A DNA stretch of 64,000 nt, taken from NCBI GenBank assembly GCA_964471165.1, contig CAYYEX010000001.1, positions 1,037-65,036 of the forward strand, read 5' to 3'. The stretch comes from an uncultured Candidatus Saccharibacteria bacterium (GTDB lineage Bacteria > Patescibacteriota > Minisyncoccia > Phycocordibacterales > UBA2100). The position numbers were made by a program, and so were the translations under genes. Below, one piece after another: positions 5,690 through 34,203 of the stretch. The notes beneath the pieces are model-generated. The model was not told the origin of the DNA. It did not search any database and worked only from the letters and a program-made list of their open reading frames with translations. Position 1 is the stretch's first letter, and every line of letters begins with the position of its first letter.

Positions 5690-8600
5690 CTACTTACTTT
5701 TTTTAATCTCATTCAAGTTTTTCCGAATAACTTCAATCTGGTTATTCAATTGCTTTATAGTGTTACTTAGTTGAGTTCTGTGGTCAATAATCAGCTGCAT
5801 CTTGTAGGCAATCTTTTGCGCATGCGCATGAAAATCTCTAAGTTGAGCCGTCCATGCTTGATAGTTAGAATTCTTAACGTCACCAATTGTCTTGGCACTG
5901 TGGTCGAAAATATCGGGAATCCGGCTGGTGCCAGGCTTAGTTACGGACGGAATTTTTTCGGTGTTCTTAACTATCTCGGCTGCTTGTTCTCCGATGGCAC
6001 CCGCTTTCTGATTTTTTGCCAATGAAGCTGCAGCTTCCCCAGCCTTTGCTGCGCGCAACGTAAGCCCCCCAATGGCTGGTACCCCAGGCAATGCCAGCGA
6101 AGTAGTGTCGAGTCCCACTGCCCCGAGATTTGACCAGCTCGGATTGGCAAAAAAGATTCCTACTGAAATTGAAAGCATCGCAAGATCGAATCCGCTTTCT
6201 ATATAAGTTCCCTGTGGGTCTGAGAAGCGCATTGGGTTGCCTCTGCCGTACGAGTAGCTATTAAACTGTTGGGGATCGAGTAAGAAATATGGCTCACTAT
6301 TTCCAGTTATGTTTTTTAACCTCTCAAGATCCCCAATTGCTAAGTGGATCGCATCCTGACTCAAGAACTGTCCGCGAGAGTTTTGTAGATACCTAGCATT
6401 TAGATAATTTAACCCGCTAGCGTCAGTGTATTGGCCGATGAATTGATGCTTTTCGTTTGTCTGACCAGTTGAGCTTGAATAACGAATACCACCGTACGGC
6501 AGGTAGTCGAGGACTTGAAACGGGGTGCCCGAGGCATTTGTAACCACGTTTGTGGAACCAAGATGATCTGAGTGAATGTATCTTGTCGTTGTTGACCTGC
6601 CGTCTGCGGCAACTGTCGCAAGTAGCGAGTCACCTAGGAATATGTACGAAGTGGAGGTTGCTCCTGATATGTCCCAATACTTGTGCGGATACAACGTTGT
6701 GGCAGTCCCGATTGTCTGTCGTACACGCTGATTTTGATAGTCGTAGGCATAGGTGCTCGTAGCTGTGCCAGTAGCAACCTGAGTCATTCGATTGCGGTAG
6801 TCCCACGTGTGGTTCCATGCCCCCGCATTCGTTTCGTTGCCATTGTTGTCGTAAGTAAACGTTGTCCCAAATACTGATGTCGGAGCGTGCGGATTGGCGT
6901 AGCCAGTTCCAGCGTATAGGTGCGTCGGAGTCGTTGTCGCACCACCGCTCGGGCTGTCTGTACTAAATGCTGGGTTATTTACAGCAGTTAAGTCGTTGGC
7001 ACTTGCGGTGCTGTCTGCATATGATTGATTGAACTTGTAGTATGCGGCAAGTCCGGATTCCGCGCCGGTGAGCTGTGAGCCCCTATTTGTATTGATTTGC
7101 GATTGTGTACGTTTTACATTCCAGATTCGCACGTCGTCCAATAACCCATCATATCCGGCGCTCCCCGCCGAGCCATCCGAGCCATACGTCCCTATGCGAA
7201 TTCTGAATGCGTCGTTCTGCGGGTCGTCAGCGAAAGTGCTCGTCGTACCCACAGACAGACCATTCAGGAAAAACTCTGCTTTGTTGGTGATTGCGTCATA
7301 CACCACCGCAATGTGCGACCAGGTACTAGTGGCGAGACTACCGGAGACTGGCGTATCAAATCCCATAAGATTCGATGTAAAGCCAAAATGTGTCGGCTGA
7401 TAAATGAGAAATGCGTACGCACTTGGATCTGCGCCACTTTCTCGTGTTTTGCTAACCACGCCGAAAACATCGTTCATTGATTCCGGCTTTACCCATGCCT
7501 CAATGGTCATGTCACCCGTTATATCGAATGCCGTAGCGTCGTTATGATACGTGTATTGCGCGGAGCCCACTTCCAAATCAAGCGAGCCAGTGTTTCCGTT
7601 TGATGGCGACGTTGTACCCATATACGTCATGTTGCCCAGTACGTCGTAGAGATAGTACTCGGAATACGGGGACGAAGAAGCATTTGTCATCGATGCCCCT
7701 GTAAGTCTATTCAGTCCGTCGTAGGAGTAGGAGACACTTTTTGCTGCTCCGGTTTGTGTCCAATCAGTTATCTGCGTGATGTTACTGGCCGCATCGTATG
7801 TGTAGTCGATTTTCTGAAGGAACGGACTTGATGTTGCGGTTTTGGACGTGTACTTGCTCGACAGTCTGTACAAATGTGCGGCATCGTAGGTATTGACTGT
7901 TCTCACACCATTCCAGAATGTGGTGGTGCCGACTTGACCAAGCGGCGAATAGCTTGTTGTCGATGCAACATTACTCCACACGGTATCTGATGGCGCCTTT
8001 TTCCGCACCGCATACACTTGCCCACCGGGGTTATAGATATATGAAACGAGTGTGCTGTTCGGATATGTGAGGTCCGTGATATTTCCAAGGCGGTCGTACG
8101 TGTACTGCATCATGTAGTTCGTACTAGACGCAGTCGTTGTAGCAAACCGCGTGAGCCCAAGTGCGTTGTATGCGTAGCTCGACGTTGCCGACGGTGTGGC
8201 TGCAATACAAAGTCGTGTTTTGCCATCCGTACAAGTGTCGTACGTATATGTAATTTCAGTACCGCCTGAGCCTGTGTAGTCCTCACTTGTAACCCGATTG
8301 AGTCCGTCGTAGACGAAGTTCACTGTCTGACTCTTGGGATCTACTTGTTGCGATACGTTGCCTGCGAAATCATATGTAAATTGCCACAGGCCGTACGTGG
8401 AATCTGCGGGAGCGTGCAGGTCTTGCGCCTGCGTTCGACGACCGAGTCCGTCATACACGAATCCGCGCACATTCCCAAGCGCATCCGTGGTCGTTGCGAG
8501 GCTACCGGTTAAGTCCCACGTGTAGGTAGTGGTCGCGAGCGTCGAGGCATTGTGTTCTACAACATTCGCTATATTTCCGAACGCATCCTTTGATACATCT

Positions 8601-11600
8601 TTCAAATTACCCATTGGGTCGGTGGTTGTAATCGCCCAGTTCGCGTACGAGTTTGATGTTGTTCCAACAGCGTTTCCTATTGCAGTGAGCCGACCAAGCG
8701 AATCGCGAAGCGACGTGGAGTAGAGCGCAGCTGTTGCTGTCGGCGCAGAACGAGCGGTGCCCGATGAGAAATACGGCAACGTTTCTCGCCAGTTGAATCC
8801 ACTCGCGTCGTAACTCATATCTTTGACGGCGTACTGGTTGGTGGTTTCCGTGCTCGCACGGGTTTGAATCGTGCGTCCAAGGCCGTCAAGATATTCGTAG
8901 GCGTTTGTGCTTGATGCGGCGTTCAAGTTTGCTGTTCGCTGCACAGCAAACGCATTTGGCGTGTTCGTATATGTGTATTGTGTCTTTGTGACGAGCGTAG
9001 TGGGCGTCGTTTGGTCTGGCTGTTTTTCTTGCGTTGGCCGGTCAAGTGCATCGAAAATAGTTTGGAAGACTCTATTATTTTCGTCGGTCTTCTGTTTTAC
9101 TTTCCCTGCTGAGTAGTCGTATTGATAACCCACAGTGTGACTGAGCGGATTCGTGCTGGTAGCGACATATAAGTTCAGGGAATCATATACAAAGCTCGTT
9201 GTGTTGCCTCGTGGGTCTTTTTCTTGAGTAGGCAGCCCGTACAAGTTGTATGCCTTTGTGGTACTTGCGTAGGTGGACCCAGAAATCCATTTTTCTGCCT
9301 TTGTGGGATTACCCAAATTCACCGACCCATACGTGGTGTTGTCGTATGTATATTTTTCAAGAGCAATCGTTGTACCCACTGTAGTCGTTGCAGTCGAGGA
9401 CCCGCTTACTGACCATGTGCCACTTGTTGAAAACGTAAAGATGGTACTGGTTCCACTTGTCGTGCGCGAACCACCAGTCACTGTGTAAGCAGAAATGACG
9501 GACGTCGGTACTGAGATGATAACCGTCCCGTCACCACCCTTTCCACCAGCCGCGCCATCCTTACTTCCACCGCCACCCCCTCCGCGGCCATCTGTGCCTG
9601 GATTACCAGCCTGCGCTCCACCAGCACTACCACCTGCGCCACCACCACCAGTGCCGCCCGACTGGCCACCACCACTACAATTTGAGCCACCATTTCCACC
9701 ACCACCCGCATATGTCACTGAAGAACCTGTAATCGAACTCGCTGAACCATTACCTCCTGCGGACCCATCAGTTGCGGCAGCCCCCGCACCTCCGCCTGAA
9801 CCACCCTGATTACACGCGCCAGAATTTTTTCCGCCATTATTACCTTGACCCGCAGTACCGTTGCCCCCAGCGTTTGATGAGTATCCGCCGCCGCCAGAGG
9901 CACCTTGTGAACCTGTGGTTCCAAGCGCGGGCGCACCGCCACCGCCACCGTCGGAGGAGATACCGTTAAAGGTCGAAGTTGCTCCATGTGTACCATTTGA
10001 ACTCGAGTTTGCCCCAGAACCTGCGCCACCTGCGCCGACAGTCACGGTGAATGAACCGGGTATTGTGAGTGTACTTGCACCAGACTTCATGCCGCCTGCA
10101 CCGCCCCCTGCACCGCCAGAGTTAAACCAAGAACCGCCACCGCCTCCCCCGCCTCCAATGATTAAGTAGCTGTACGCAGTTGAAGTACTTGAGGTAACAG
10201 TTGTAGTTGCCGTGAAATCCAATTTTAGGGTGCGTTTTTCAGTTGGAACGCTCATGTTGACTGAACTGCTCGCTGCATAGAGAAAACTCGTGCCACGCTC
10301 ATCGTCACCCACGTCAGTGTAAGTACCATCGTCAGCACCCTGGACCTCTCCGAATTCGTCAGACTCTATCAAGTCGCCATTTGTTGTTGATGCATACGTA
10401 TATGCTTCTCCCACATCTTTATGAATAGACCCGCCATTAAACAACTGAACAAGCTTCCGTCCGAGGCCAATAAAAATGCTATTGCCGCGGTCTGCTGTAT
10501 CCCAACGATAAAATGTTCGTTGAAATAGATTTCCCGATATATCCGAGACATCCTCTCTAAACGGACGATTAACTTGTGCAAACCCTTCAGTTTGTTCGCC
10601 ACTCGTTGTTGCGGTTGCGTCTCCCTGGTTGAAATACGTCGTTACAACCGCATTCGGTTTTGTTTCTGTTGTTTTCCAAAAACCACCAAAGCGCTTGTCT
10701 CTAACCCCACGCGCGAGATACATCTTCCCGCCAGAATATGTGTACGTCGTCGCGGATGTGTTACCGAATCCGTCGTCTGTAGTTATCTTTGAAACCACCA
10801 AAAGAGAAACGGGTAGTTCGGGGTTTAAGCCTGTTTGCGCGGATTGCACATAGTTAATTGTTGTCGTACCACCGTACATGCTTCCGACGCGTTCGATGAT
10901 GTCCTGCTGCTGCTGACCATTCCCCGACCAGTTTGCGTATTCGATATTTGCGAAGTGCCCGTCCCAGTTTGAAGTGCCGTCCACGATTACCTGCGTGATA
11001 TAGCTCGGAAATGTGTATGCTGTGCTCGTAGCCCAACCGGAACCCGTATTGAGGTACACGATTTTAACGTCCGCAACCTCCGCTGGATTCATTCCAGCGG
11101 GTGCAATATTTATTGGCGCCTGATAAGCGCGGACAAAGTCCGCAAGCCCGTCGCCGTTGATATCCATGAATCTCATCCCGCGATCGTAATATTGCGAAGG
11201 CGACCCAGTTTTGTAATACGTCGGTGTTGCAATCGTCCACCGAGGGTCATCAAAAGTCTCCCAACCACGTGCGGTATTTAATCGCACCGTCGTTTTGACA
11301 TCATCCGAATGAAACCAATCATCGAGACCGTCTCCATTCACATCTACGAGCTGAGAGTAGCTTGCCACCCCGCCACTGGGTCCCGGCAAGTCCATCGGCG
11401 CAGTGTATAAGGTCGTTGTACCTGTATCCCATGCCGATCCATTTCCCAAATACGCCTTCTTTGTTTCCCCAGCGGCTGCCAGGATAAAATCCGGAAGTCC
11501 GTCGCCATTAACCTCTGCAAACAACCCTGTGGTCAAGCCAGTGCCTGGAGAATTGATGGCGAAGTTTGGCACTTCTCCTGTATATGTAGTGCTCGCAACC

Positions 11601-12895
11601 CAACTGAAACCCGTAGATGTGGCATACGAGTTGAGATAGACACCTACGGTCGAACTTCCTGATTCGGAAAGGCCCTTCGCAACATCCACTTTTCCATCAC
11701 CGTTTATGTCCACGTAGCGTACACCATATTCCTGCGGAATATTACTGCTATCTGCCCATATCCATGGGGGCGTGACACTCACAGCATTCGCTTGGTCAAG
11801 GGAAATTGAACCTTGGTATACCCCTGAGACTGATTTGAAAAGGGATATATCATTTAACCCGTTACCATTTACGTCACCGGGAACCATTGAGGCTTTATTG
11901 AGGATTAGGTCGGCAGAACTTGGCGAAACGTAGCGAGTACTCGTCGATATATACGTGAAATTAATGGGAGGCAGCGAGATTTGGGCCGCCGATTCGTCTT
12001 TTCCTGTTTGTTGAACCGATGAAAGCAGCGAACGCGAGCCGTTATTTCCCGTGGTGTACGAAAGCGCATACTTCTGAGTCCAGGAGCCTGAAACTTCGGC
12101 CAATATTTGGGTGACTCGGAATCGAGTGGTAACCCCAAATCCCTCTTTATAGCTCGTTAGCTGGTCTGCACGTGTCGATGTGGAGAACGTGATTGTCAGC
12201 GGACCGTCCGTAACGCCATTACCCGTGTAGAAAATCTTGTATGGATAAACTTGATTGAAATCCTTTACGTAGGTGTACTTTACGTAATTTCCGTTCGTAT
12301 CTCGGACTTCTTGCAACATCCAGCGATATATAAGTGTTGGCGAGGATGTAGATTCTGTTCTGCCCGACGAATCCGAGCCGAACGTGTATTTAGTGCCTTT
12401 TTTATCGTAAACGGTCCACACATTGCCGGAAAGTGTGTATGAATTATATGCCCCTGTATCAATCTTTGCCCGGTATGGACTCGATGTTGCGGTTGTGGTG
12501 GTCGCAAGCTCTCCATCTATCGAAGAACTGTAAGTCGGTTGATTGTACAGGTTCTGTACCCCCGTTTTATTCAAGCGTTCAATATATGGGATTGATAGCG
12601 ACCATCCGTATCCAACAATGCTGTTTTCTGTGCGCTGACTATTGTATTCGAGCGCTAGGTCGGGCTGCATGCCAAGGCGGCCGGGGGGAATCGACAGAGC
12701 GATTCGTTGTGTTAACGCCCCAGTTGAACCATCAACTTTTGCCTGACTACTCTGAGTAAAAACGTTTTGATTGGGAACAGAGGGCGCAGCGAGAGCGAAA
12801 GTTTTTACCGGCACCAGGGGTGCAACTACGAGAAAACAGAGAACAATAGAAATTGCCTTGTTGAAAACCGAGTCACGCAGAGAGAATACGTTCAC
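5690..12895 (-). CDS. Secreted RHS/YD-repeat polymorphic toxin, 2401 aa, with a fused TcB/TcC-like BC cocoon architecture: SpvB domain, FG-GAP repeats, Gly-rich insert, LamG-like domain, RHS repeats, RHS core, and a C-terminal toxin. It starts with GTG.
   Basis: Signal peptide. SpvB motif LSIPPGRLGMQPDLALEYNS..GYGWSL. FG-GAP motifs DVNGDGLDD, DINGDGLAD, VNGDGLPD. Many YD repeats (YTYDAASNITQITD, YSYDGLNRLT, YAYDYQNQRVRQT). RHS core YIHSDHLGSTNVV...GLNYLNARYLQNSRGQFLSQD...NPMRFSDPQG. Confidence 0.9.
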   Translation of the reverse strand: MNVFSLRDSVFNKAISIVLCFLVVAPLVPVKTFALAAPSVPNQNVFTQSSQAKVDGSTGALTQRIALSIPPGRLGMQPDLALEYNSQRTENSIVGYGWSLSIPYIERLNKTGVQNLYNQPTYSSSIDGELATTTTATSSPYRAKIDTGAYNSYTLSGNVWTVYDKKGTKYTFGSDSSGRTESTSSPTLIYRWMLQEVRDTNGNYVKYTYVKDFNQVYPYKIFYTGNGVTDGPLTITFSTSTRADQLTSYKEGFGVTTRFRVTQILAEVSGSWTQKYALSYTTGNNGSRSLLSSVQQTGKDESAAQISLPPINFTYISTSTRYVSPSSADLILNKASMVPGDVNGNGLNDISLFKSVSGVYQGSISLDQANAVSVTPPWIWADSSNIPQEYGVRYVDINGDGKVDVAKGLSESGSSTVGVYLNSYATSTGFSWVASTTYTGEVPNFAINSPGTGLTTGLFAEVNGDGLPDFILAAAGETKKAYLGNGSAWDTGTTTLYTAPMDLPGPSGGVASYSQLVDVNGDGLDDWFHSDDVKTTVRLNTARGWETFDDPRWTIATPTYYKTGSPSQYYDRGMRFMDINGDGLADFVRAYQAPINIAPAGMNPAEVADVKIVYLNTGSGWATSTAYTFPSYITQVIVDGTSNWDGHFANIEYANWSGNGQQQQDIIERVGSMYGGTTTINYVQSAQTGLNPELPVSLLVVSKITTDDGFGNTSATTYTYSGGKMYLARGVRDKRFGGFWKTTETKPNAVVTTYFNQGDATATTSGEQTEGFAQVNRPFREDVSDISGNLFQRTFYRWDTADRGNSIFIGLGRKLVQLFNGGSIHKDVGEAYTYASTTNGDLIESDEFGEVQGADDGTYTDVGDDERGTSFLYAASSSVNMSVPTEKRTLKLDFTATTTVTSSTSTAYSYLIIGGGGGGGGSWFNSGGAGGGAGGMKSGASTLTIPGSFTVTVGAGGAGSGANSSSNGTHGATSTFNGISSDGGGGGAPALGTTGSQGASGGGGYSSNAGGNGTAGQGNNGGKNSGACNQGGSGGGAGAAATDGSAGGNGSASSITGSSVTYAGGGGNGGSNCSGGGQSGGTGGGGAGGSAGGAQAGNPGTDGRGGGGGGSKDGAAGGKGGDGTVIISVPTSVISAYTVTGGSRTTSGTSTIFTFSTSGTWSVSGSSTATTTVGTTIALEKYTYDNTTYGSVNLGNPTKAEKWISGSTYASTTKAYNLYGLPTQEKDPRGNTTSFVYDSLNLYVATSTNPLSHTVGYQYDYSAGKVKQKTDENNRVFQTIFDALDRPTQEKQPDQTTPTTLVTKTQYTYTNTPNAFAVQRTANLNAASSTNAYEYLDGLGRTIQTRASTETTNQYAVKDMSYDASGFNWRETLPYFSSGTARSAPTATAALYSTSLRDSLGRLTAIGNAVGTTSNSYANWAITTTDPMGNLKDVSKDAFGNIANVVEHNASTLATTTYTWDLTGSLATTTDALGNVRGFVYDGLGRRTQAQDLHAPADSTYGLWQFTYDFAGNVSQQVDPKSQTVNFVYDGLNRVTSEDYTGSGGTEITYTYDTCTDGKTRLCIAATPSATSSYAYNALGLTRFATTTASSTNYMMQYTYDRLGNITDLTYPNSTLVSYIYNPGGQVYAVRKKAPSDTVWSNVASTTSYSPLGQVGTTTFWNGVRTVNTYDAAHLYRLSSKYTSKTATSSPFLQKIDYTYDAASNITQITDWTQTGAAKSVSYSYDGLNRLTGASMTNASSSPYSEYYLYDVLGNMTYMGTTSPSNGNTGSLDLEVGSAQYTYHNDATAFDITGDMTIEAWVKPESMNDVFGVVSKTRESGADPSAYAFLIYQPTHFGFTSNLMGFDTPVSGSLATSTWSHIAVVYDAITNKAEFFLNGLSVGTTSTFADDPQNDAFRIRIGTYGSDGSAGSAGYDGLLDDVRIWNVKRTQSQINTNRGSQLTGAESGLAAYYKFNQSYADSTASANDLTAVNNPAFSTDSPSGGATTTPTHLYAGTGYANPHAPTSVFGTTFTYDNNGNETNAGAWNHTWDYRNRMTQVATGTATSTYAYDYQNQRVRQTIGTATTLYPHKYWDISGATSTSYIFLGDSLLATVAADGRSTTTRYIHSDHLGSTNVVTNASGTPFQVLDYLPYGGIRYSSSTGQTNEKHQFIGQYTDASGLNYLNARYLQNSRGQFLSQDAIHLAIGDLERLKNITGNSEPYFLLDPQQFNSYSYGRGNPMRFSDPQGTYIESGFDLAMLSISVGIFFANPSWSNLGAVGLDTTSLALPGVPAIGGLTLRAAKAGEAAASLAKNQKAGAIGEQAAEIVKNTEKIPSVTKPGTSRIPDIFDHSAKTIGDVKNSNYQAWTAQLRDFHAHAQKIAYKMQLIIDHRTQLSNTIKQLNNQIEVIRKNLNEIKKSK
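5693..6208 (-). other. Variable C-terminal toxin domain of the RHS protein (172 aa after DPQG). No recognisable catalytic family. It has a hydrophobic segment and a C-terminal coiled coil.
   Basis: It follows the RHS aspartyl-protease/cleavage motif. Local GC drops sharply relative to the upstream 6.5 kb of the same gene. Confidence 0.6.
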
Positions 12896-14738: not shown

Positions 14739-15377
14739 CTATCCCAAATGTGCGTGGTCGTTGTATGTCCACAATCGCCACGAAGCATCCTGCTCAAAGC
14801 TCTCTTGGTATCGCAGGACTGTTATCCCCGTATTCTGCATGTCTGCAGAGCGTTGAATACTCTGATATGACTCCGGTGTAAGCATGTCTTTAAGGAGCAC
14901 ACGAGCCACGATTGTTCTGAGAAAAAAACCATGTGTCACAACAACGATCGCCGACTCCTGCCGATCACACAGATAGCTTAGTGCTTCGTCCGCACGGCGT
15001 ACGAGATCTTCAAAATTCTCGCTATCCTCCACGCGCATTCCCGTCGTATAGAGACTCGTCTCCCACTGTCGCCAAATCACGTTGGCTGCCTCATCGGAAT
15101 AGGGCTTACCGTTGATACTCGTCGGCTTGATGCGCTCGACAAATAGCTCCGAATACTCCGGAGATTTATTCGTTTTCTTAGCGATCATTTCTGCCGTTTC
15201 TCTTGCGCGCGTGAACGGGCTTGCAACGAGCGCATCAAACGAGATCTTACTAATTCGTTCCGCGATCAACGCTGCCTGTTCTCTTCCGGCCTCATTCAAC
15301 GGCGAAGTCGGCTCCTGGAAAACAGGGGCCACATTGGCTTCGCTTTGTCCGTGTCGAACAAGGTAAACCGTCTTCAT
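14739..15377 (-). CDS. Histidine phosphatase superfamily protein (phosphoglycerate mutase family).
   Basis: N-terminal VRHGQSEAN catalytic motif. Confidence 0.8.
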   Translation of the reverse strand: MKTVYLVRHGQSEANVAPVFQEPTSPLNEAGREQAALIAERISKISFDALVASPFTRARETAEMIAKKTNKSPEYSELFVERIKPTSINGKPYSDEAANVIWRQWETSLYTTGMRVEDSENFEDLVRRADEALSYLCDRQESAIVVVTHGFFLRTIVARVLLKDMLTPESYQSIQRSADMQNTGITVLRYQESFEQDASWRLWTYNDHAHLG

Positions 15378-15383
15378 GCCGCT

Positions 15384-16643
15384 TTAGAGCGCAAACATCC
15401 CTTTCTTGTAGATAACCACCGTCTTTCCATTCTTGAGATGCGCGGTCACAGTGCGATCTGTGGTTGAGATCATATCGGTGTGTACAGAAGAATCATTGAA
15501 GCCAAGTTTCTGTGCCTCTTTGGTCGAGAGCTTGCTCACGTCGCCCGCATAGGTGTCGCGATACGACATACCCACAGCGATATGTGTGTTACCGAATGGC
15601 CCACCCATGTTCTCGTCGAAGAGCGTCTCTGCCATGAACTTGGTAATGCGTGAGTGGCGTTTGTCGGTGAGCGAGTACTCGCCCACTTTATTTGCGTCCT
15701 TGGTTGCAATCATTTCTTGCAGGAGCTTTTCGTTGGTCTTTGCTGTTGCTTTCACCACGAGGCCGTCTTTGAACCAAAGCTGAATGCCCGTTACCTTGCT
15801 GCCATAGCGATAGAGCGGTTGGTTGAAACGAATCCATCCGTTGGTTCCGCGCCAGTCCGGTGAGGTGAAAATTTCGAAGCTCGGAATGTTGCGGCCAGAG
15901 CCTGCCATCCATGAGCGCTTTTCGCCCAGTGTAATCCACAAATCCATGTCTTCTCCCACTGCATGGAGCTTGTCGATTTGAGGCGAGAGTTTATTGAGCT
16001 TGCCGCGGAACATATCGATTTCCTTGTATACCGATTTCCATTTTTTGATTGGGTCCTTTTCGTCGAGGAAGCACGCTTTGATTATCTGGTTCCAGTATTC
16101 CTTTTCTGAAATGCCGGCTTCTTTCGCCATTGCCGGTGTGCCGTACAAACAAATAGTCCAGGTGAACTTGTTGTTCCACTCTTTTTGATTGAGCCAATCC
16201 TTGTACGGCTTCATGGCAAGGCCGCGGCGCATTATCTTCTTCGGGTCCACACCTTTGAGCGCATGTGGGTCTGCGTCGGAGAAAATGTAGAGCGAGTGGT
16301 CAATTTGTTCCGCAATACCTTTCAAGTACGCCTTCGGAAAGAAATCGAGCTGGTGGTCCTTGGCGTTTTCGTAGAAAAAACGCGTAAAGCTTTCTGCACG
16401 GCGCTTGTCGCCTTGCTCGTCGTCAGGTGAGTAATTGGAGATTACGTGTCCACCGCTTTTTACTATTGCGTTGCAAATGGCCGCAAAAAGCGGCTTTCCT
16501 GATTCAGTCGCGGAAACACGCACGACTTCTCCTTTTTTAATTCCTTTGCCGCCGCCAAGGGCAAAGTTGACCATAACGTCAGCGTATTTTTCTAAAATTT
16601 CCTTTGATGGTGTGTAAGACATCTCGTGAGCGTACTTGCTCAT
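15384..16643 (-). CDS. Aminopeptidase, M29 family (AmpS/PepS-like).
   Basis: 419 aa. N-terminal MSKYAHEMSYTPSKEILEKYADVMVNFALGGGKGIKKGEVV, typical of thermophilic-type M29 aminopeptidases. Confidence 0.8.
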   Translation of the reverse strand: MSKYAHEMSYTPSKEILEKYADVMVNFALGGGKGIKKGEVVRVSATESGKPLFAAICNAIVKSGGHVISNYSPDDEQGDKRRAESFTRFFYENAKDHQLDFFPKAYLKGIAEQIDHSLYIFSDADPHALKGVDPKKIMRRGLAMKPYKDWLNQKEWNNKFTWTICLYGTPAMAKEAGISEKEYWNQIIKACFLDEKDPIKKWKSVYKEIDMFRGKLNKLSPQIDKLHAVGEDMDLWITLGEKRSWMAGSGRNIPSFEIFTSPDWRGTNGWIRFNQPLYRYGSKVTGIQLWFKDGLVVKATAKTNEKLLQEMIATKDANKVGEYSLTDKRHSRITKFMAETLFDENMGGPFGNTHIAVGMSYRDTYAGDVSKLSTKEAQKLGFNDSSVHTDMISTTDRTVTAHLKNGKTVVIYKKGMFAL

Positions 16644-17389: not shown

Positions 17390-17440
17390 GTATACCCCGA
17401 AGGGTACCTTCATCTATGAGACGTGCCCAGAGGGCATGTC
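17390..17440. terminator. Two adjacent GC-rich hairpins between the RND pump stop and the next gene. One has a UUCG tetraloop and a U-run on the minus strand; the other has a U-run on the plus strand.
   Basis: Hairpin A is GUACCC-UUCG-GGGUA(U) followed by CUUUUG on the minus strand. Hairpin B is GACGUGCCC-aga-GGGCAUGUC followed by UUUCUUG on the plus strand. Confidence 0.3.
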
Positions 17441-17447
17441 TTTCTTG

Positions 17448-20400
17448 CTAGTACGGGCCCGAACCGTGCGATTTGCGCAAACCAAGCGTTTTTGCAATTG
17501 CGTGCCCGGCACTATCTTCAGGTCCGTACATGTTGTCCCCGGGCGTGCCTTTCTTAGCAATGAGCCAGACGAGATACACAATGTTTATTCCCGGCACGAG
17601 CGTGAGCAGCGAAACGAATCCATCGTAGCCGATATCGTGCAGTCGGCGAATCTGCAGACCAGTTATCACTGCGTAGACAACTGAGATAACGAGAATCATT
17701 GCGTACATCGACGGAATGAATGCTGATGCTACGGAAACCAGCATAAACAGTGCGGCGGCGAGAACGAGTGACGCCACGAATCCAATGATGAAGTGTGTGC
17801 GATTCAATCGCCCCGCAAAGAAGTTGTAGAGCATTCCTTGTGGCACAGGCGTACCTGCAGCACGGCCGCCCACTGGGCTCAGTACATTGAACTGCTTCGC
17901 AATCACGCTCCCCGGCCAGCGTCGCACAAGAATTGGCACGAATACAAGCGTGAGAAGCATCGCAAACGAAAGACCGAAGAGAATTGCAAGCGCCAGCGGG
18001 CCGAACAGCGCCGAGGCAAACGTGAGCGGAATCATACCGATTACTGTTGTGAGCGTGGTGAGCACAATAGGGCGCAAGCGCGTTGTGGAAGCATCAGTCA
18101 CAATCTCGGTAAAGCTTCTACCGTGGCTGTCTTTCATGCGTTTAATCATCGCATCCATGAGAATAATGGCGTGGTTGATGATAACGCCGGCGAGCGCAAT
18201 GAGACCCATCATCGATGGGAACGAGAGCGGTTGAAACGCAATCGTGAGTCCGAAGAACACACCAATGAGTGAGAGCGGTACAATCGAAAGCAAGAATGAT
18301 GTGAAACGGAACGAATCGAATGCGAGCACGAGAATCACGAACATGAGCGCGAGGCCCGCGACCAGTGAGAGACCCATTTCTGCGAATGACTTGTTAGTTT
18401 CTTCGTTCTCACCGCCTATGGACTCTGTGATTCCTGCTGGCAGGTTCTCTGTTGGGAACTTTTCGTGGAATGCCGCAAGTACTTCTGCCGGCGTATGACC
18501 TGCTTCAACGGCACTTGAGAGCGTTACAACACGCTGTCTATCCTCGTGTGCAATTGCTGCGTTCGACTGAGACACCCCTTCCGTAATCACCGAGCCAAGC
18601 AGCACAGATGTGCCACTTTGGGTTATGAGTGGAATCTGTCGCAGACTATCGATGGTTGTGTTGTTGGCATCGTGCGGGTCTGTGTAGTTTGGATTGAGAT
18701 TGAGCGACACAACGATTTCAACATCTTTATCACCGCCTGTGAGTTTTGTGGCTGTCGCGCCAGAAACCGCAGTGCGCAGTGTTGCTGCAACTTGAGCCGG
18801 TGAGAGCCCGAGCGCGGCCAACTTGCCACGGTCAATCGTGAGTTCGTACTGTGTTCCATCAAACTTGTTCGACGAATCCACCGTTGTTGCACCCGGGGTT
18901 TGCTCCAGCTGTTCTCGCGCGTGACTAACCGTTGCGTTGAGCACTTCCTGGTCCTTTCCAAGATACTTGATGAGCACTGCTGCACCCACTGGCGGTCCAC
19001 CAGATGGCTCACCCACTCGAATTTCTGCTGACTTAATATCTGCAACTTTCTTTTTAATTTCCGTAACAACTTCCGCAGATGTTTTCTCATGGCCCTCCAC
19101 GAGGTTGATTGTGATGTTGGCAAAGCGCGCATCTGACTGCGGGCCCATACCGGTCGTATCCGAGAAAGAGCTCTGCGAGCCAACCGTTGTTACTAATGAC
19201 TCCACGTCCTCCTGTTCGTAGAGGATTTCTTCGATGGTTCGTGCCACAAGGTCGGTCTGATTGAGTGCAGTTCCCGCAGGCTTTTCAATATCCACATAGA
19301 CTACGTCGCCGTTTTCTCCAGGGAAAAAACTCACTTTCATAAGTCCGGTTACCGGCAACAGAATTGCGACAAACAAACCAACGAGCATCGTGGTAATAAA
19401 CCAGTTCTGGAACCAACGGTTCTCAAGAATCTTCGTCAATCGTGCCGAGTACCACTGTCGAGCCTGCTCAGCGTAGTCATCCTGTCGTTTGGCAAGTTCG
19501 CTCTCGTGCGCTCCCTCAAACATGTTCGCGAGCGTTGGTACAAGACCGAGCGCCACGAAGATTGACGCCATAAGCACGAAGATGATGGTGAACGGAATGG
19601 ATGCGATAAATTCCCCGACGATGCCGGAAATAAAGAAGAGTGGGAAGAATACTGCCACGGTTGTCATCGTGCCGCCGATGAGCGGCCACGCGTATTCGTG
19701 TAGCGACTCAATCGCGGCGCGCTTTTTGTCGTGATGCAGTCGCGTGCGCGTATGAATTGCCTCAACCATCACGATCCCCGCGTCAATCAAGATACCGATT
19801 GCGAGAATAAGTGCGAAAAGCGAAACGACGTTGAATGAGTTGCCAGTATACAAAAGGCCGACGAATGCAATGAAGAACGACAGCGGAATAGAAAGCCCTG
19901 CTACTACCGCCTCGCGCCAGCCAATCGTCGCAAAGAGAACAAGCATGATGAGCGCCACGGTCTCCAATCCAGTTCGCGTCAGTTCACTAAGGTTTTTACT
20001 AATCTCTTCGGAGAAGTCGAAAGAAACGACCACCTTGCTCCCGTCGAGCAACTGGTTTGGTTGTTGGAGTTCGGTCAACCGCGCTTTAACTGCTTTGGTC
20101 ACAGTGGTAATGTCGTTTCCCTTTACCTTAAAAACATAGAGTGTCATTGCCTGCTCCGATGGTTCTCCCGCCATAGAAATACGCGAATATGAACGCGCGT
20201 CCTCCACGCCGTCTGTCACATCTGCGATGTCACGCAAATACACGACCTGCCCGTTCACGTTAAGCACTGCAATGCCAGCAATATCGGCAGTGTCGTCGAT
20301 TGAGCCCTTGAAGTCGATTGCGTAGGAAACATCGTCCACCGTAATAGACCCGACTGGCAGCGATGCGTTTGATGCAGCAATAGCCCCTACGATTTGTGAG

Positions 20401-20996
20401 AGTGAAATATTGAGGCGCGCTATCTCTTCTTTACGAACCACAACTTGAATCTCTCGGTCGCGCACACCCGAGACGTCGACGCGATTGACTCCTTTTACAG
20501 CCTGCAGGTCGCTCTTGAGAGATTCCGCGAGTTCTGCAAACTGTGCAGGTGGCACGTCGGCTGAAACAGAAATAAATTGGATTGGCTGGTCCGAGAGATT
20601 TACATCGCTCACGACCGGAGTCGTGGCTTCCTCTGGCAAGTCCGGTACCACCTTATCGACTTCGTCCTTCAGTTTTTGGATTGATTTATCGAGGTCGGCA
20701 TTCGCGTTGAACTCAACAACAATCACCGCGAGGCTTTCACGCGAGTTCGATGTGAGCTTGCTCATGTCGGGCAAATTCGCAAGACGCTCTTCTACCTTGT
20801 TTGTGATAAGACGCTCCACATCTTCCGGCGACGCTCCCGGCAACACAATAGAAACAACGCCAACCGGAATAGATACGTCGGGCGTGGATTCCTTTGTAAT
20901 TTGGAATGCAGCGACGGCGCCCCACAAACTGAGTGCCAAAATCACGAGGATTGTGAACTGTCGTCGTTCAATGAAAAACTGCCAGAGGGGAACCAT
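17448..20996 (-). CDS. RND (AcrB/HAE1-type) efflux permease carrying a C-terminal DUF805 domain fusion (about 140 aa).
   Basis: 1182 aa, 12+ transmembrane helices, and two large periplasmic loops typical of AcrB. The C-terminus reads GRLNRTHF...RRLHDIGYDGF...GTPGDNMYGPEDS, matching DUF805 (the RRLHD and G.P.NRYGP motifs). Confidence 0.9.
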   Translation of the reverse strand: MVPLWQFFIERRQFTILVILALSLWGAVAAFQITKESTPDVSIPVGVVSIVLPGASPEDVERLITNKVEERLANLPDMSKLTSNSRESLAVIVVEFNANADLDKSIQKLKDEVDKVVPDLPEEATTPVVSDVNLSDQPIQFISVSADVPPAQFAELAESLKSDLQAVKGVNRVDVSGVRDREIQVVVRKEEIARLNISLSQIVGAIAASNASLPVGSITVDDVSYAIDFKGSIDDTADIAGIAVLNVNGQVVYLRDIADVTDGVEDARSYSRISMAGEPSEQAMTLYVFKVKGNDITTVTKAVKARLTELQQPNQLLDGSKVVVSFDFSEEISKNLSELTRTGLETVALIMLVLFATIGWREAVVAGLSIPLSFFIAFVGLLYTGNSFNVVSLFALILAIGILIDAGIVMVEAIHTRTRLHHDKKRAAIESLHEYAWPLIGGTMTTVAVFFPLFFISGIVGEFIASIPFTIIFVLMASIFVALGLVPTLANMFEGAHESELAKRQDDYAEQARQWYSARLTKILENRWFQNWFITTMLVGLFVAILLPVTGLMKVSFFPGENGDVVYVDIEKPAGTALNQTDLVARTIEEILYEQEDVESLVTTVGSQSSFSDTTGMGPQSDARFANITINLVEGHEKTSAEVVTEIKKKVADIKSAEIRVGEPSGGPPVGAAVLIKYLGKDQEVLNATVSHAREQLEQTPGATTVDSSNKFDGTQYELTIDRGKLAALGLSPAQVAATLRTAVSGATATKLTGGDKDVEIVVSLNLNPNYTDPHDANNTTIDSLRQIPLITQSGTSVLLGSVITEGVSQSNAAIAHEDRQRVVTLSSAVEAGHTPAEVLAAFHEKFPTENLPAGITESIGGENEETNKSFAEMGLSLVAGLALMFVILVLAFDSFRFTSFLLSIVPLSLIGVFFGLTIAFQPLSFPSMMGLIALAGVIINHAIILMDAMIKRMKDSHGRSFTEIVTDASTTRLRPIVLTTLTTVIGMIPLTFASALFGPLALAILFGLSFAMLLTLVFVPILVRRWPGSVIAKQFNVLSPVGGRAAGTPVPQGMLYNFFAGRLNRTHFIIGFVASLVLAAALFMLVSVASAFIPSMYAMILVISVVYAVITGLQIRRLHDIGYDGFVSLLTLVPGINIVYLVWLIAKKGTPGDNMYGPEDSAGHAIAKTLGLRKSHGSGPY

Positions 20997-22648: not shown

Positions 22649-23101
22649 TTATTGTAATGACGAGTGCGAGTGTCCTCGAACGAGTTTTTTAAGAATGCTG
22701 CACAATGAGCCCACTTCCGACTCGTCGAGCGTAGAGAATGCGTGTCGCATCATCTCTTCCGACTGATCTGCGTAACTTTCCAGCACCTTCTTGCCTGCCG
22801 GAGTGACCGAAAGCACCACTTCGCGTCTGTCAGCACCAGTTTTTCGCTCAACCATACCCCGCTCCACTAAGTGGGCGATGAGCGACGTAACCGAAGGTGC
22901 CTTGATGCGCAGGTACGCCGCAACATCGTGCATTGTTGGAGAATCGTTTCGCTCGATAAAGTGCATTGTCTGCAGTCGGAGCCATGCATTCGGGTCAGAT
23001 TGCTTGGCACCTGGCAGTTTTTGCCGAATTATCTGACGCGTCTCAAAAAAGAGCCCCGAAAGCTCTCCATACATCGTATTTTTAAGTGCTTTTTCAGCCA
23101 T
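22649..23101 (-). CDS. MarR-family transcriptional regulator.
   Basis: Winged helix: PTMHDVAAYLRIKAPSVTSLIAHLVERGMVERKTGADRREV. Confidence 0.85.
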   Translation of the reverse strand: MAEKALKNTMYGELSGLFFETRQIIRQKLPGAKQSDPNAWLRLQTMHFIERNDSPTMHDVAAYLRIKAPSVTSLIAHLVERGMVERKTGADRREVVLSVTPAGKKVLESYADQSEEMMRHAFSTLDESEVGSLCSILKKLVRGHSHSSLQ

Positions 23102-30354: not shown

Positions 30355-31578
30355 CTACTCGTAGCGCAATGCTTCGATTGGATTGAGCGAGGCAGCCCGG
30401 CGCGCTGGATAGTAACCGAAGATGATTCCGATTGCACCGGAGACACCAAATGCAATCAGAATAGAGGAAACGGATACACTCGTACTCAAGAGCCCCGTGA
30501 GATTCACAAGGAATGAAATAAGCCATCCCAACGCTATCCCAATTGAGCCGCCGACGACCGTGAGTGCAACCGCCTCTGCTAAGAATTGTTGGCTAATGTC
30601 GCTTTTTTTTGCTCCGATTGCCTTTCGCAAACCAATTTCGCGCGTGCGCTCCGTAACAGTGGTGAGCATCATGTTCATAATGCCAATGCCTCCGACCACG
30701 AGCGATATTCCGCCGATTGCAGCGAGTAAATACGTGAGTGTTGAGGTAACGCTCGAAGCGGTGGAAAGCAGGTCGTTCTGGTTGAAAACCGTAAAGTCTG
30801 CCTCAGCGTCAGGTTTTATTTTGTGTCGTTCAAGCAAGAGCGCAGTAATATCTGCCTGCACCTGCGCCATACTCTCTGGATTAGACGCTTGTACGGCAAT
30901 GGTTGAAAGATATTGGTTGCCAGAAAGAAATCGCTGTGCACTTTTCACCGGGATAAATACTTGGTCGTCTTGATTTGTGAATCCGGAACCGCCTTTTGTT
31001 GCGGTAATACCAATAATCTTGAACTCCATACCGTTGATACGAACCACCTGGCCTACGACACCCTCGACCCCTTCACCAAACAGGTCGTCGCGAACCGTCG
31101 GACCAAGCACGACAACTTTCGATGCAGATAGATTTTGTGTTTCTGAAATAAATACACCGTCGGAGACTTCCACATTGCGAATTTGCGAGTATGCGGCAGT
31201 AACACCGTTGACCGTCGTATTCGTATTTGCTCCCTTGGCGGTAAGTTGGTAGCGCCCTGTGACTTGTCCATCGACCGCTTGTACATCGGCAACTGATGTA
31301 ATGGCCTCTGCGTCTGCTTGCGTGAGCGTGCGTGCGGAGCCTCGGCCGCTTGAGGCGCCAAATCCCTGTCCGCGCTGTGCCCCCGGAATAACCTGGATAA
31401 GATTCGAGCCGAGAGATTCGATACTCGAGGAAATTGTTTTTGATGCGCCCGTGCCGATAGAAACCATGGCAATCACGGACGAGATGCCGATAACGATACC
31501 CAAAATGGTGAGTCCCGAGCGGACTTTGTTGGCAGAGAGTGCGCTATATGTTTCGTGCGCGAGGTCGTTTATTTTCAT
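30355..31578 (-). CDS. ABC transporter permease, MacB/FtsX family.
   Basis: N-terminal transmembrane helix, a large periplasmic domain, and a C-terminal FtsX 3-transmembrane bundle. Starts with MKINDLAHETYSALSANKVRSGLTILGIVIGISSVIAM. Confidence 0.85.
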   Translation of the reverse strand: MKINDLAHETYSALSANKVRSGLTILGIVIGISSVIAMVSIGTGASKTISSSIESLGSNLIQVIPGAQRGQGFGASSGRGSARTLTQADAEAITSVADVQAVDGQVTGRYQLTAKGANTNTTVNGVTAAYSQIRNVEVSDGVFISETQNLSASKVVVLGPTVRDDLFGEGVEGVVGQVVRINGMEFKIIGITATKGGSGFTNQDDQVFIPVKSAQRFLSGNQYLSTIAVQASNPESMAQVQADITALLLERHKIKPDAEADFTVFNQNDLLSTASSVTSTLTYLLAAIGGISLVVGGIGIMNMMLTTVTERTREIGLRKAIGAKKSDISQQFLAEAVALTVVGGSIGIALGWLISFLVNLTGLLSTSVSVSSILIAFGVSGAIGIIFGYYPARRAASLNPIEALRYE

Positions 31579-32288
31579 GACGTTTCGTGATGCGCATGTT
31601 TGCGCACATGTGTCTTTGCGTCGGAAACGATGACCCCGTCGCGCAGTGTAATGATTCGCTCTGCATGCTGCGCCACATCGGGCTCATGGGTAATGAGCAC
31701 CACGGTGCGTCCGTGCTCGCGATTAAGCCGCTGGAATGTGCCGAGGACAATTTCTCCTGTTTTTGTATCCAGATTTCCCGTTGGTTCATCGGCCAAAATC
31801 AGCGCAGGGTTATTGACGAGCGCTCGCGCAATTGCGACGCGTTGAATTTGTCCGCCAGAAATCTGATTACTCTTGTGCGAAAAGTGTGTTTCGGTGAGCC
31901 CCGCAGCGTGGAGCGCCTCTGTCGCGCGTCGCACACGCTCACCCTCCTCAACACCTGCATACACGAGCGGCAACATCACGTTGCGAAGCACAGTGGTGCG
32001 AGGCAACAGGTTGAACGCTTGGAACACAAATCCAATCTTGTCTTTGCGGATGTCGGCGAGCTCCTCGTCATTGAGCTGAGACACATCTTTTCCGTCGAGG
32101 TGATATGTACCGCTTGTGGGTGTATCAAGGCAACCGAGAATGTGCATAAGAGTCGACTTTCCGGAACCTGACGGTCCCATGATTGCCACAAACTCGCCGT
32201 CGTTAATCGTAAAACTCACTCCCTTGAGCGCGTCGAATGCAGTGTCCCCGGTTCCGTACGTTTTTCGTATGTCGTTTGCTTCGAGCAT
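31575..32288 (-). CDS. ABC transporter ATP-binding protein (MacB-type ATPase). Start MLEANDIRKTYG at 32288.
   Basis: Walker A GPSGSGKST, signature LSGGQIQRVAIARAL, Walker B ILADEPTGNLD. Confidence 0.9.
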   Translation of the reverse strand: MLEANDIRKTYGTGDTAFDALKGVSFTINDGEFVAIMGPSGSGKSTLMHILGCLDTPTSGTYHLDGKDVSQLNDEELADIRKDKIGFVFQAFNLLPRTTVLRNVMLPLVYAGVEEGERVRRATEALHAAGLTETHFSHKSNQISGGQIQRVAIARALVNNPALILADEPTGNLDTKTGEIVLGTFQRLNREHGRTVVLITHEPDVAQHAERIITLRDGVIVSDAKTHVRKHAHHETS

Positions 32289-32292
32289 AGCG

Positions 32293-34116
32293 CTAGAAGC
32301 GAATTGCTCCACCAGGCGGGGCACCGCCCGTGCGCGTCGCTCCCCCGGTTGCACCTGTAGTCCGCGTGGTTGCACTTGCCGCAGCGGCGCTCGCAGTACT
32401 GGTGCGCGTTACGATTTGCTGTCCTTCCGTGAGTCCTGAAATAATTTCAATACTTGTGTCGTCGGAAATTCCGGTCTGTACGCTCATCTGTTTGGGTTCA
32501 ACTTTTGAAGTAACTCCTTGCATGCCTGCACTGGTGTCGAGCGCTGGCTCAAACACGAGCACGTACTGTGTATCGCCCCGTGTTTTTACCGCCGAGGATG
32601 GAACGGTGAGCACATCGGTCTTTGCATCTGTAATAATAGACGCGTTTACGGTCATGCCTGGCTTAATGCGGTCGTCCTGGGAATCAAAGGCAATTTTTAC
32701 TGTGTAGCTCACAACACCTTGCGAAACAGTGCCGAGTGTATCAATCTCGGCAACGGAACCCGTGAGTGTGAGTTCATCGATTGCGTCGAACGTGAGCGTC
32801 GCTTTGTCGTTCAGAGACACCTTCGTTGCATCAACTTCGTTGAGCGAGAGCGTTGCAATCTTTCGCTCAGTAACAATCGTTGCAATCGCGCCGCCGTTCG
32901 AAACACGCTCGCCTGTCTTTGCCGCGACCGTAGCTATCGTGCCACCAAATGGTGCGCGAATTGAGTAATCAGCGAGTGTATTGAGTGCATCCTGAACCGC
33001 GTCCTCTCGCTGTCGAACCGTGAGTTCCACGCTACGCACATCAAGTTCGTCTGGACCGTCCTGCACATCGACGAGCGATTGCTGTTTCTCAGCGATAGAG
33101 CGCTTGGCACTCGCAATGCTTTGCACGGTCGTCTTTATCGTAGAGGCGTCACCTGAAATTGCAGTGATGTGCACTGCACCCGTGGTATTCAAATCGCCAA
33201 GCGTAGTGAGCGCGTTCGTAGCTGAAGGGGCAACGGAGTGCTGCTGGCCCTCCATAGTTGTTTTGTAAAGGCGGATATAGGCTTCCGTGCTTTTTACCGC
33301 ATCGGCAAATGCATTGAGCATCGGCTCTGTTTGCCCGAGCATTGCATCTATTTCAGCCGGTGTCTGGCTTGATGCAAGTTTTTGGTAGTTCGAATATGCA
33401 CTGTCGTAGGCTGTTTTTGCCGCAGTGAACTTTTGATACGCGTCATTGCGATACGCACCTGCTTTGTCGGTGTACTGGTCCATCGCGTTTTTATAAAAAT
33501 CCATATTCCACTGGGAATGGTTTGCATCGGTGCCAGTGAGAATGTTTTCGAGCGAGCGCACCATATCGGGCGCATCGAGGAATGTGCTCACAATATCTCC
33601 GCTCGCATCAGAATACGCTTTTACTAGGTTTTCCTCTGCAGTGGTTTTGCTGTCTTCGGCACTCGCAAGTGCGTTTTGTGCCTGTGTGAGTGTGAGTCCG
33701 GACGCTGGCTTTTTTAACTTTTCGAGTGAGAGTTTTGCATTTTCAAGATTTGTCTGCGCATCGCGCAGTGCACGCTGAGCATCGCCGGCATCCACGCGAG
33801 CAATCGTTGCTCCTGCTCCCACTTTCTGTCCGGCTTTTACTCCCACATAGGTGAGGTCGCCGGCAACGTCGGCTGTGATGTCGAGCTGATTTGACGCAGA
33901 TACTTGGCCAGAGGCAGAAACCGACGCAACAATTGTTGCGCGATTCACTACGCCGAGTGTGTACACAGGGTCGCCTTCGGTCGAGGTCAGCGCGGAGTAG
34001 CCGTAGTAGCCGCCACCAAGTACAGCCACGGCAATGAGCGCCGCCATAACCTTATGCGTTGCTGCCCAGGCGCCCAGAGTGCCGAGTTTAGTGAAAAGCG
34101 TGTGGAAAATCCCCAT
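32293..34116 (-). CDS. Periplasmic adaptor (MacA/HlyD-like membrane fusion protein) with a C-terminal Thr/Gly/Ala-rich tail. Start MGIFHTL at 34116.
   Basis: N-terminal transmembrane helix, long coiled-coil hairpin, and barrel domains. It heads a macA-like/ATPase/permease operon. A TACAAT sits 6 nt upstream of the ATG. Confidence 0.75.
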   Translation of the reverse strand: MGIFHTLFTKLGTLGAWAATHKVMAALIAVAVLGGGYYGYSALTSTEGDPVYTLGVVNRATIVASVSASGQVSASNQLDITADVAGDLTYVGVKAGQKVGAGATIARVDAGDAQRALRDAQTNLENAKLSLEKLKKPASGLTLTQAQNALASAEDSKTTAEENLVKAYSDASGDIVSTFLDAPDMVRSLENILTGTDANHSQWNMDFYKNAMDQYTDKAGAYRNDAYQKFTAAKTAYDSAYSNYQKLASSQTPAEIDAMLGQTEPMLNAFADAVKSTEAYIRLYKTTMEGQQHSVAPSATNALTTLGDLNTTGAVHITAISGDASTIKTTVQSIASAKRSIAEKQQSLVDVQDGPDELDVRSVELTVRQREDAVQDALNTLADYSIRAPFGGTIATVAAKTGERVSNGGAIATIVTERKIATLSLNEVDATKVSLNDKATLTFDAIDELTLTGSVAEIDTLGTVSQGVVSYTVKIAFDSQDDRIKPGMTVNASIITDAKTDVLTVPSSAVKTRGDTQYVLVFEPALDTSAGMQGVTSKVEPKQMSVQTGISDDTSIEIISGLTEGQQIVTRTSTASAAAASATTRTTGATGGATRTGGAPPGGAIRF

Positions 34117-34203
34117 AAAGTGATTGTATCTCAGTCGGTTATAGAAAACGGCCATGAGCCGCGTACCCACTAATACACCCGGGACAAGCAGTTTATTTCA
34201 TTC

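Follow-up and report, generated by a model that had tools for sequence, protein, structure and literature searches.

The 64,000-nucleotide stretch of DNA analyzed here (the window), from an uncultured Candidatus Saccharibacteria bacterium (contig CAYYEX010000001.1 of assembly GCA_964471165.1), encodes a permease of the resistance-nodulation-division (RND) family whose reading frame runs on past the usual C-terminus into a complete DUF805 domain. The gene (17448..20996 on the reverse strand) is an open reading frame (ORF) of 1182 codons with no internal stops. It had been picked out in a first inspection of the DNA made without database searches (the sequence-only reading), which saw the pump continue in frame for about 140 aa at 17448-17900. 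The extension was found to be 144 aa, since the closest unfused relatives stop at 1038 aa, and that interval spans nearly the whole tail. The junction between the two parts was at about position 17912, at the codons for ...RRWPG that close transmembrane (TM) helix 12. Homologs were found in Candidatus Kaiserbacteria and Paceibacterota, which belong to the candidate phyla radiation (CPR, or Patescibacteria).

The fusion gene is the final gene of a MarR-MFP-RND operon (Table 1), in which the gene for the membrane fusion protein (MFP) sits 4 nt upstream of it. This gene order recurred in all close relatives, together with a wider synteny that included genes for an AI-2E transporter, a P-type ATPase, a protein of 231-235 aa, an M29 peptidase, a histidine phosphatase, and ornithine carbamoyltransferase. 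A FolB gene was present between the M29 peptidase and histidine phosphatase genes in contigs L001 and L002 and absent from the window (14739..16643, compared with 10450-12675 of L001) and from contig L034, which shows a small flux of gene content amid otherwise conserved synteny.

Table 1. Features of the operon and of the fused gene in window coordinates; residue numbers are those of the fused protein.
Feature	Position	Strand	Basis or remarks
MarR-family regulator, 150 aa, first gene of operon	22649..23101	(-)	MarR_2, E 8.5e-11
HlyD-type MFP, 545 aa	21001..22638	(-)	HlyD_3, E 2.9e-18; HlyD_D23
RND permease-DUF805 fusion gene	17448..20996	(-)	single 1182-aa ORF; stop TAG at 17448-17450
RND permease body, residues 1-1028, end ...VPILVRRWP	17913..20996	(-)	Pfam ACR_tran; AlphaFold2 secondary structure
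Linker, residues 1029-1054	17835..17912	(-)	juxtamembrane helix VIAKQF (1030-1035), then fast-evolving tether predicted to be disordered
DUF805 module, residues 1055-1160	17517..17834	(-)	Pfam match 1060-1159
DUF805 TM helix A, residues 1066-1090, probably in-to-out	17727..17801	(-)	hydropathy; AlphaFold2
DUF805 TM helix B, residues 1096-1121, cytoplasmic end probably RRLHD	17634..17711	(-)	AlphaFold2; conservation
Invariant RRLHD motif, residues 1117-1121	17634-17648	(-)	closes helix B
Third hydrophobic element, residues 1126-1147, putative re-entrant hairpin	17556..17621	(-)	deep-alignment AlphaFold2
GTPGDNMYGP (1150-1159), then C-terminal segment specific to fused lineages	17451..17549	(-)	alignment of fused tails

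The permease body

Analysis of the body of the protein showed that residues 5-1023 matched ACR_tran (PF00873) with 603 bits (cut-off 28, E 1.3e-180), and that the match spanned positions 2-1016 of the 1021 in the profile. Hydropathy peaks and an AlphaFold2 (AF2) model gave 12 TM helices and two big extracytoplasmic loops, after TM1 and TM7; the model's secondary structure placed TM1 at 12-36, the first loop at 40-327, helices at 328-550, the second loop at 565-861, and further helices at 863-1026. Scores fell below every curated NCBIfam cut-off for RND subfamilies (the best was RND_permease_2, 501.5 bits against 1250, and the AcrB equivalog scored 158 bits against 2150), and the protein is therefore classed by its profile matches as a divergent RND permease outside the curated AcrB/HAE1 membership.

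The best matches among solved structures, over query residues 8-1027 (E 1e-89 to 1e-64), were MexK, a TriC-like protein (6vej), MdtB, and ZneA, whose hosts are diderm bacteria with outer-membrane channels. The alignments to these chains ended at query residues 1017-1027, and the chains have no counterpart of residues 1029-1182; none of the RND chains in the PDB reached beyond query residue 1027.

The proton relay of AcrB consists of an Asp-Asp pair in TM4 and a Lys in TM10, and the corresponding region of the CPR clade seems to be unlike it (residues ~400-410 and ~935-948, window 19760-19800 and 18150-18220). In the window protein the TM4 sequence is ILIDAGIV, in which the only Asp (D405) was invariant in 55 homologs, and that of TM10 is VIINHAIILMD, without Lys, a comparison made from sequence rather than from a structure-based alignment with AcrB.

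The DUF805 tail

The sequence-only reading had called the tail a complete DUF805 module from three motifs, GRLNRTHF, RRLHDIGYDGF, and GTPGDNMYGPEDS, all of which were located in the ORF (residues 1062-1069, 1117-1127, and 1150-1162, respectively). The profile search bore this out. DUF805 (PF05656) matched residues 1060-1159 over profile positions 4-111 of 111, with 58.2 bits in the full protein (E 1e-15) and 63.7 bits (E 2.6e-17) for the tail alone, far above the gathering cut-off of 25.7. Pfam found nothing besides DUF805 on the tail, and hence no homology to AcrZ or YajC was seen. In a 60-sequence alignment of the family R1118, H1120, D1121, N1155, and G1158 were invariant, and G1062, R1063, R1066, G1126, P1135, and G1150 were conserved in at least 90% of the sequences. 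All family-invariant residues were retained in the window module: GRxxR, RRLHD, the proline of the third hydrophobic element, and GxxGxNxYGxxP.

An AF2 model of the tail that used a 60-sequence alignment was of high predicted quality, with a predicted local distance difference test score (pLDDT) of 89.7 and a predicted TM-score (pTM) of 0.82. It began with a short amphipathic helix at 1055-1060, followed by two long helices, A at 1066-1090 and B, with RRLHD at its end, at 1096-1121. Next came a third hydrophobic element in two halves, one of 8 residues (1126-1133) and one of 11 residues (1137-1147) past a break at V-P-G. Of the three TM helices that had been proposed for the tail, two long ones are thus supported, while the third is probably a re-entrant hairpin. 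In the full-length AF2 model, made from a shallow alignment, the third element was a single helix of low confidence and the linker (1040-1066) had pLDDT below 50. When the tail model was searched with Foldseek, the sole meaningful match was the model of a DUF805 protein of phage DSS3_VP1 in BFVD (probability 1.00, TM 0.51/0.66), and no analogue was found in the PDB.

Alignment of the fused tails showed that the C-terminal segment after GTPGDNMYGP ends in ...K.(H/Y)G..PY. Among the best 150 DUF805 representatives, the PY end was found only in P0122, P0125, and P0132, which are of the fused subfamily, and in P0128. A separate DUF805 product from an internal start at Met1055 was considered and rejected, as conservation of Met1055 does not extend to the other fused lineages. 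A scan for terminators and promoters near the end of the gene gave nothing informative.

Independent occurrences and selection

The identical protein (P0001) was found on three contigs. Its ortholog P0391, also of 1182 aa, was 90.5% identical without gaps; GCA_021733565.1 and GCA_964419595.1 both encode it in this operon and with the same synteny. A second fused clade was made up of P0392 (1183 aa) and P0394/P0119, with 80% identity between them and 65-66% to the window protein, and a third lineage was represented by the short contig L036 (P0122), in which the RND frame was open from the edge of the contig, covered TM11-12, and passed on into the linker and DUF805. All of the fused lineages shared a juxtamembrane motif, x[IVL]x[AR]x[QE]F, after RWPG, a linker of 26-30 residues, and the ...K.(Y/H)G..PY end.

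No frameshift or stop was found at the junction or in the tail; the ortholog had the same 1182-codon frame, with 70% nucleotide identity over the tail and substitutions biased toward synonymous ones, and there were no indels in the 154 tail codons. The window gene and the L034 ortholog gene were compared over 3549 nt, without gaps, by the Nei-Gojobori method, which gives the proportions of nonsynonymous (pN) and synonymous (pS) differences. The RND body (residues 1-1028) had 93% amino acid identity (pN 0.048, pS 0.71, omega ~0.02) and the DUF805 module (1056-1160) 78% (pN 0.13, pS 0.60, omega ~0.12), the omega values being approximate because the synonymous rate, dS, was near saturation. Identity fell to 56% in the linker (1029-1055; pN 0.35, pS 0.82), for which saturated dS left omega not computable. 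Judged by these substitution patterns, the tail is translated in the RND frame and is under purifying selection, weaker than that on the pump, and the linker behaves as a spacer. The comparisons between assemblies indicate that the fusion of an RND permease with DUF805 is genuine and selectively maintained, and it is a new variant of the domain architecture of RND permeases.

Two of the related contigs contained an in-frame stop. On L005 a TAA at 3853-3855 inside DUF805 (GYDGFA*LLAF) truncates P0022 to 1129 aa; the frame past it is intact to the conserved ...LPY end, and in the cluster mates P0392 and P0125 the residue there is Ser. On L036, a contig of 1.4 kb, a TGA at 127-129 replaces the codon for the invariant Gly987 of the RND part (TTVI*MIPL instead of TTVIGMIPL). 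Both look like strain mutations or sequencing errors. Recoding of UGA as Gly was considered unlikely for L036, as this was a single case, with GGN codons for Gly elsewhere and a TAG stop at the end of the gene.

The metagenome scan yielded one locus, L006 (Ga0137414_1252989), a 6.2-kb contig that is palindromic and heavily frameshifted. On both strands it carried the C-terminal half of an RND permease followed by DUF805-like sequence, and each end of the contig had fragments of an ammonium transporter. The contig is probably an artefact of inverted-repeat assembly, and gives weak corroboration of the fusion.

Distribution and history of the fusion

The tail was found in three of the 120 best full-length RND homologs (P0001, P0022, and P0119) and in one of about 120 C-terminal RND fragments (P0122), which agrees with the initial view that a fusion of an AcrB-like pump with DUF805 is unusual; the word index used for these searches seems to favor length-matched candidates, and the counts fall short of a full census. 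Searches of this index with the tail alone gave no matches, and with TM7-12 plus the tail gave short fragments only. Scanning of genome contigs with the single tail as query found nothing, and with an alignment as query found only distant stand-alone DUF805 genes. As far as searched, the fusion is confined to one CPR clade and is dispensable.

The closest relatives of the window pump lacked the tail. The RND permeases P0002-P0012, from Candidatus Kaiserbacteria/Paceibacterota, were 84-86% identical to the window protein over residues 1-1028 and were encoded in the same MarR-MFP-RND operon and synteny, but were 1038 aa long, with the stop 9-10 residues past RWPG; they are annotated as 'efflux RND transporter permease subunit'. 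The DNA homology of this unfused sister clade to the window broke off at 17909, in the RWPG codons, and restarted at 17407. In place of the DUF805 tail, the unfused relatives had a separate downstream gene for a soluble protein of 90-93 aa. The pump evidently works without the tail.

The small soluble protein (MKKVVVF...EFACDD...) was encoded at 9256-9537 of L001, 7260-7532 of L004, and 1169-1399 of L036 and had a weak P-II-like match (E 0.07). Its gene followed the RND gene in the unfused relatives and in the fused L036, and was absent from the window and from L034.

A neighbor-joining tree nested the window protein within the unfused clade P0002-P0012 and placed P0022 and P0119 in a separate fused clade. 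Over the last 85 RND residues, L036 was identical to the window superclade at 71-75 positions and to the other fused clade at 61-66. Several histories were considered. In the unfused relatives examined there was no separate DUF805 gene downstream of acrB, and therefore the fusion is no trivial loss of a stop codon between neighbors; the gene that does lie downstream there encodes the unrelated 90-93-aa protein. A cassette swap, in which the small gene was exchanged for the DUF805 tail, was rejected because L036 carries both together. Because L036 belongs to the superclade of the window and has both the tail and the small gene, the sequence relationships favor an older fusion, with the tail lost secondarily in P0002-P0012 and the window lineage having lost the small gene. 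An alternative history may be that the RND gene exchanged its 3' end laterally. In a search for recombination breakpoints, the one place where fused-clade-specific residues clustered was the last turn of TM12 (L1014, F1019, I1022, and R1025), and three of these four were shared with L036.

DUF805 in other proteins

DUF805 is a large and widespread family, with 5390 representative clusters matched at E<=1e-3 in an exhaustive HMMER search. The best 150 representatives were all 700 aa or shorter, since RND clusters conceal the fused pumps. DUF805 had been described as normally a stand-alone protein, and stand-alone proteins do occur, but so do tandem repeats (33 of the best 150) and many fusions. 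At least 15 of the 150 had N-terminal zinc ribbons, and there were single fusions to FHA, to a Ser/Thr kinase, to a trypsin-like protease, and to the C-terminus of an APC permease. The last of these, P0146 (548 aa, N-terminally truncated), is an amino acid permease of the APC family followed by two tandem DUF805 domains, and is a second transporter-DUF805 fusion. It resembles the window protein in that DUF805 is appended to the cytoplasmic C-terminus of a secondary transporter with multiple TM helices, and differs in that the transporter is of another superfamily, there are two tandem copies, and the sequence is incomplete at its N-terminus.

The possibility that DUF805 is linked to efflux generally, which had been raised from the fusion, found no support in gene neighborhoods: in diverse genomes, 23 loci with stand-alone DUF805 genes all lacked an RND or MFP gene within 5 kb, so that conserved acrB-DUF805 neighborhoods were not seen at these loci, and the nearest relatives of the pump itself are without the tail.

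The window module resembles stand-alone DUF805 proteins such as YhaH and YhaI of E. coli in its full-length profile match, in having all of the invariant residues, and in its predicted fold. It differs from them in being the C-terminal domain of a 1182-aa transporter and in having the ...K.YG..PY end of its subfamily. To our knowledge, YhaH and YhaI are uncharacterized. The yhaH-yhaI genes are mildly induced by CpxR in E. coli (PMC2731931), and two E. coli phages need YhaH for infection (PMC12548472). The literature located mentions DUF805 only in passing and is silent on its function.

Membrane topology of DUF805

The C-terminus of RND permeases is cytoplasmic, and because this is the point of attachment, the N-terminus of the DUF805 module would be cytoplasmic as well. 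The position of the C-terminus was examined in other DUF805 proteins. The 24 linkers measured between tandem DUF805 domains were 17-95 residues long, and none had a clear hydrophobic stretch of TM grade, with one borderline case. Domains of cytoplasmic type were found before DUF805 (zinc ribbon, FHA) and after it (a kinase in P0177 and a zinc-ribbon coiled coil in P0236) without a clear intervening TM helix, although P0177 had one borderline hydrophobic stretch. Together with the broken third helix of the model, the tandem linkers and the flanking cytoplasmic domains argue for an N-in/C-in topology of two TM helices and a re-entrant hairpin, which would put all of the invariant polar residues on the cytoplasmic side. 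If both termini are cytoplasmic, as we infer from these sequences, the topology fits attachment at the cytoplasmic end of TM12.

Possible role of the tail

The reading that we favor, with a probability of roughly one half that counts its well-established structural part, is that DUF805 is an optional, flexibly tethered accessory membrane module of the pump, present 1:1 with each RND protomer. RND permeases are trimers, so there would be three tethered modules per pump. From the cytoplasmic end of TM12 (...RRWPG) each chain would continue as a juxtamembrane helix and a flexible linker (26 aa in all) into the complete DUF805 module, which would enter the membrane from the cytoplasm, make two passes and a re-entrant hairpin, and return to the cytoplasm. 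The invariant polar cluster (GRxxR, RRLHD, and GxxGxNxYGxxP) would then lie at the interface of the inner leaflet and the cytoplasm, beside the TM domain of the pump. Most likely, DUF805 would keep a generic activity of its own and simply be tethered by the pump, which it would support or modulate from outside the transport machinery proper; that the tail modulates the pump is the more tentative part, with the odds somewhat against it.

In AcrB, the TM domain is bound by the small membrane proteins AcrZ and YajC. The role of DUF805 would most likely be analogous to theirs, by function and not by ancestry, in that a small accessory partner in the membrane would sit beside an RND permease whose basic function does not require it. 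AcrZ and YajC differ in being separate polypeptides with a single TM helix and no similarity to DUF805, whereas the window module is covalently tethered, probably has two TM helices and a hairpin, and may bind the pump.

Several points weigh against an accessory role. The fusion is rare among the RND homologs and repeatedly absent from relatives, the many unrelated fusion partners of DUF805 fit a generic module without an efflux-specific role, and the 23 stand-alone loci have no RND or MFP neighbors. Two of the supporting contigs, L005 (TAA, in DUF805) and L036 (TGA, in the AcrB part), have single in-frame stops, and the omega values suffer from near saturation of dS. In the full-length AF2 model pLDDT was ~70-90 for the RND body and 31-62 for the tail, which only four sequences covered. 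No fixed docking was evident from this model, and a contact of DUF805 with the pump, or an effect on it, is hypothetical.

The main alternative, although a less probable one, is that the tail is a functionally independent passenger, with a membrane function of its own apart from efflux. It would have been joined to the pump when the RND gene by accident lost or gained sequence at its 3' end, and would persist only because it gains free expression and membrane insertion from the pump. The many unrelated partners of DUF805, its frequent occurrence alone or in tandem, and the lack of pump genes around stand-alone loci are all consistent with this, as are the pumps of relatives that do without a tail and the long, fast-evolving, disordered linker, which suggests no fixed docking. 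However, the architecture has been kept in at least three diverged lineages with a common junction motif and a subfamily-specific C-terminal end, the linker has been held within 26-30 aa, and the searches turned up no stand-alone gene of the fused DUF805 subfamily, P0132 being probably a fragment. APC, a second transporter family, has DUF805 at the same position, which hints at a transporter-related role.

At the other extreme, DUF805 might be a dedicated, transporter-associated regulatory subunit, with its invariant R/H/D/N cluster, facing the cytoplasm, and its re-entrant hairpin binding a lipid or a small ligand at the inner leaflet, and with the module docking on the TM domains of secondary transporters (RND in the window, APC in P0146). 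We regard this as unlikely. If it were true, the CPR fusions would be a 'Rosetta stone' for thousands of uncharacterized DUF805 members, including YhaH and YhaI of E. coli.

Less likely still is that the tail is a decaying relic, recently acquired or degenerating, without function and on its way to loss. Its patchy distribution, its apparent loss in the sister clade, and the TAA inside DUF805 on L005 could be read in this way, but every family-invariant residue is intact, pN/pS is ~0.2 (omega ~0.12) over 105 codons between two species with near-saturated synonymous sites, the tail has no indels relative to the ortholog, and the L005 cluster mates keep Ser at the position of the stop. A chimeric contig or a frameshift that merged two adjacent genes is the least credible explanation, for while the source is a metagenome-assembled CPR genome and some related contigs are poor (the palindromic, frameshifted L006 and the single stops of L005 and L036), the identical ORF occurs on three contigs, the gap-free ortholog in two other assemblies diverges with a codon-position bias, the same junction occurs in two more clades, and unfused relatives have no downstream DUF805 gene to be joined. 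Decay and artefact are largely excluded by the selection data and the independent assemblies.

The fusion is of interest for several reasons. It gives a hard topological constraint, that the N-terminus of DUF805 must be cytoplasmic, and with the tandem data this extends to both termini. It yields a hypothesis open to test, that secondary transporters have DUF805 as an accessory subunit, and it is a natural construct for structural work, in which the partner is already tethered 1:1. Among RND permeases it is a rare architecture that brings additional membrane elements to pumps of monoderm CPR bacteria. As a clue to the function of DUF805 the fusion is weak, being rare, lost in close relatives, and one of many types of partnership.

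Other loci in the window

Several other loci in the window were observed. A 2401-aa ORF at 5690..12895 (-) matched SpvB, FG-GAP, Gly_rich_2, DUF6443, RHS repeats, and Laminin_G_3 and ended in a Tox-REase-7 nuclease domain, and by these domain matches its product is a predicted polymorphic toxin of the RHS/Tc type in a CPR genome. Downstream of it, a 310-aa ORF at 4258..5190 without a Pfam match is a candidate immunity gene. A second HlyD-type MFP, of 625 aa, was encoded at 32293..34170 (-) and together with the adjacent ORFs at 31575..32375 and 30355..31578 probably forms an ABC efflux set similar to MacAB. Two large proteins that carry peptidoglycan-binding domains (PG_binding_1) at the C-terminus were encoded at 38666..40432 and 60556..62136 (-), one with an SprT-like metalloprotease motif and the other with Big_13.

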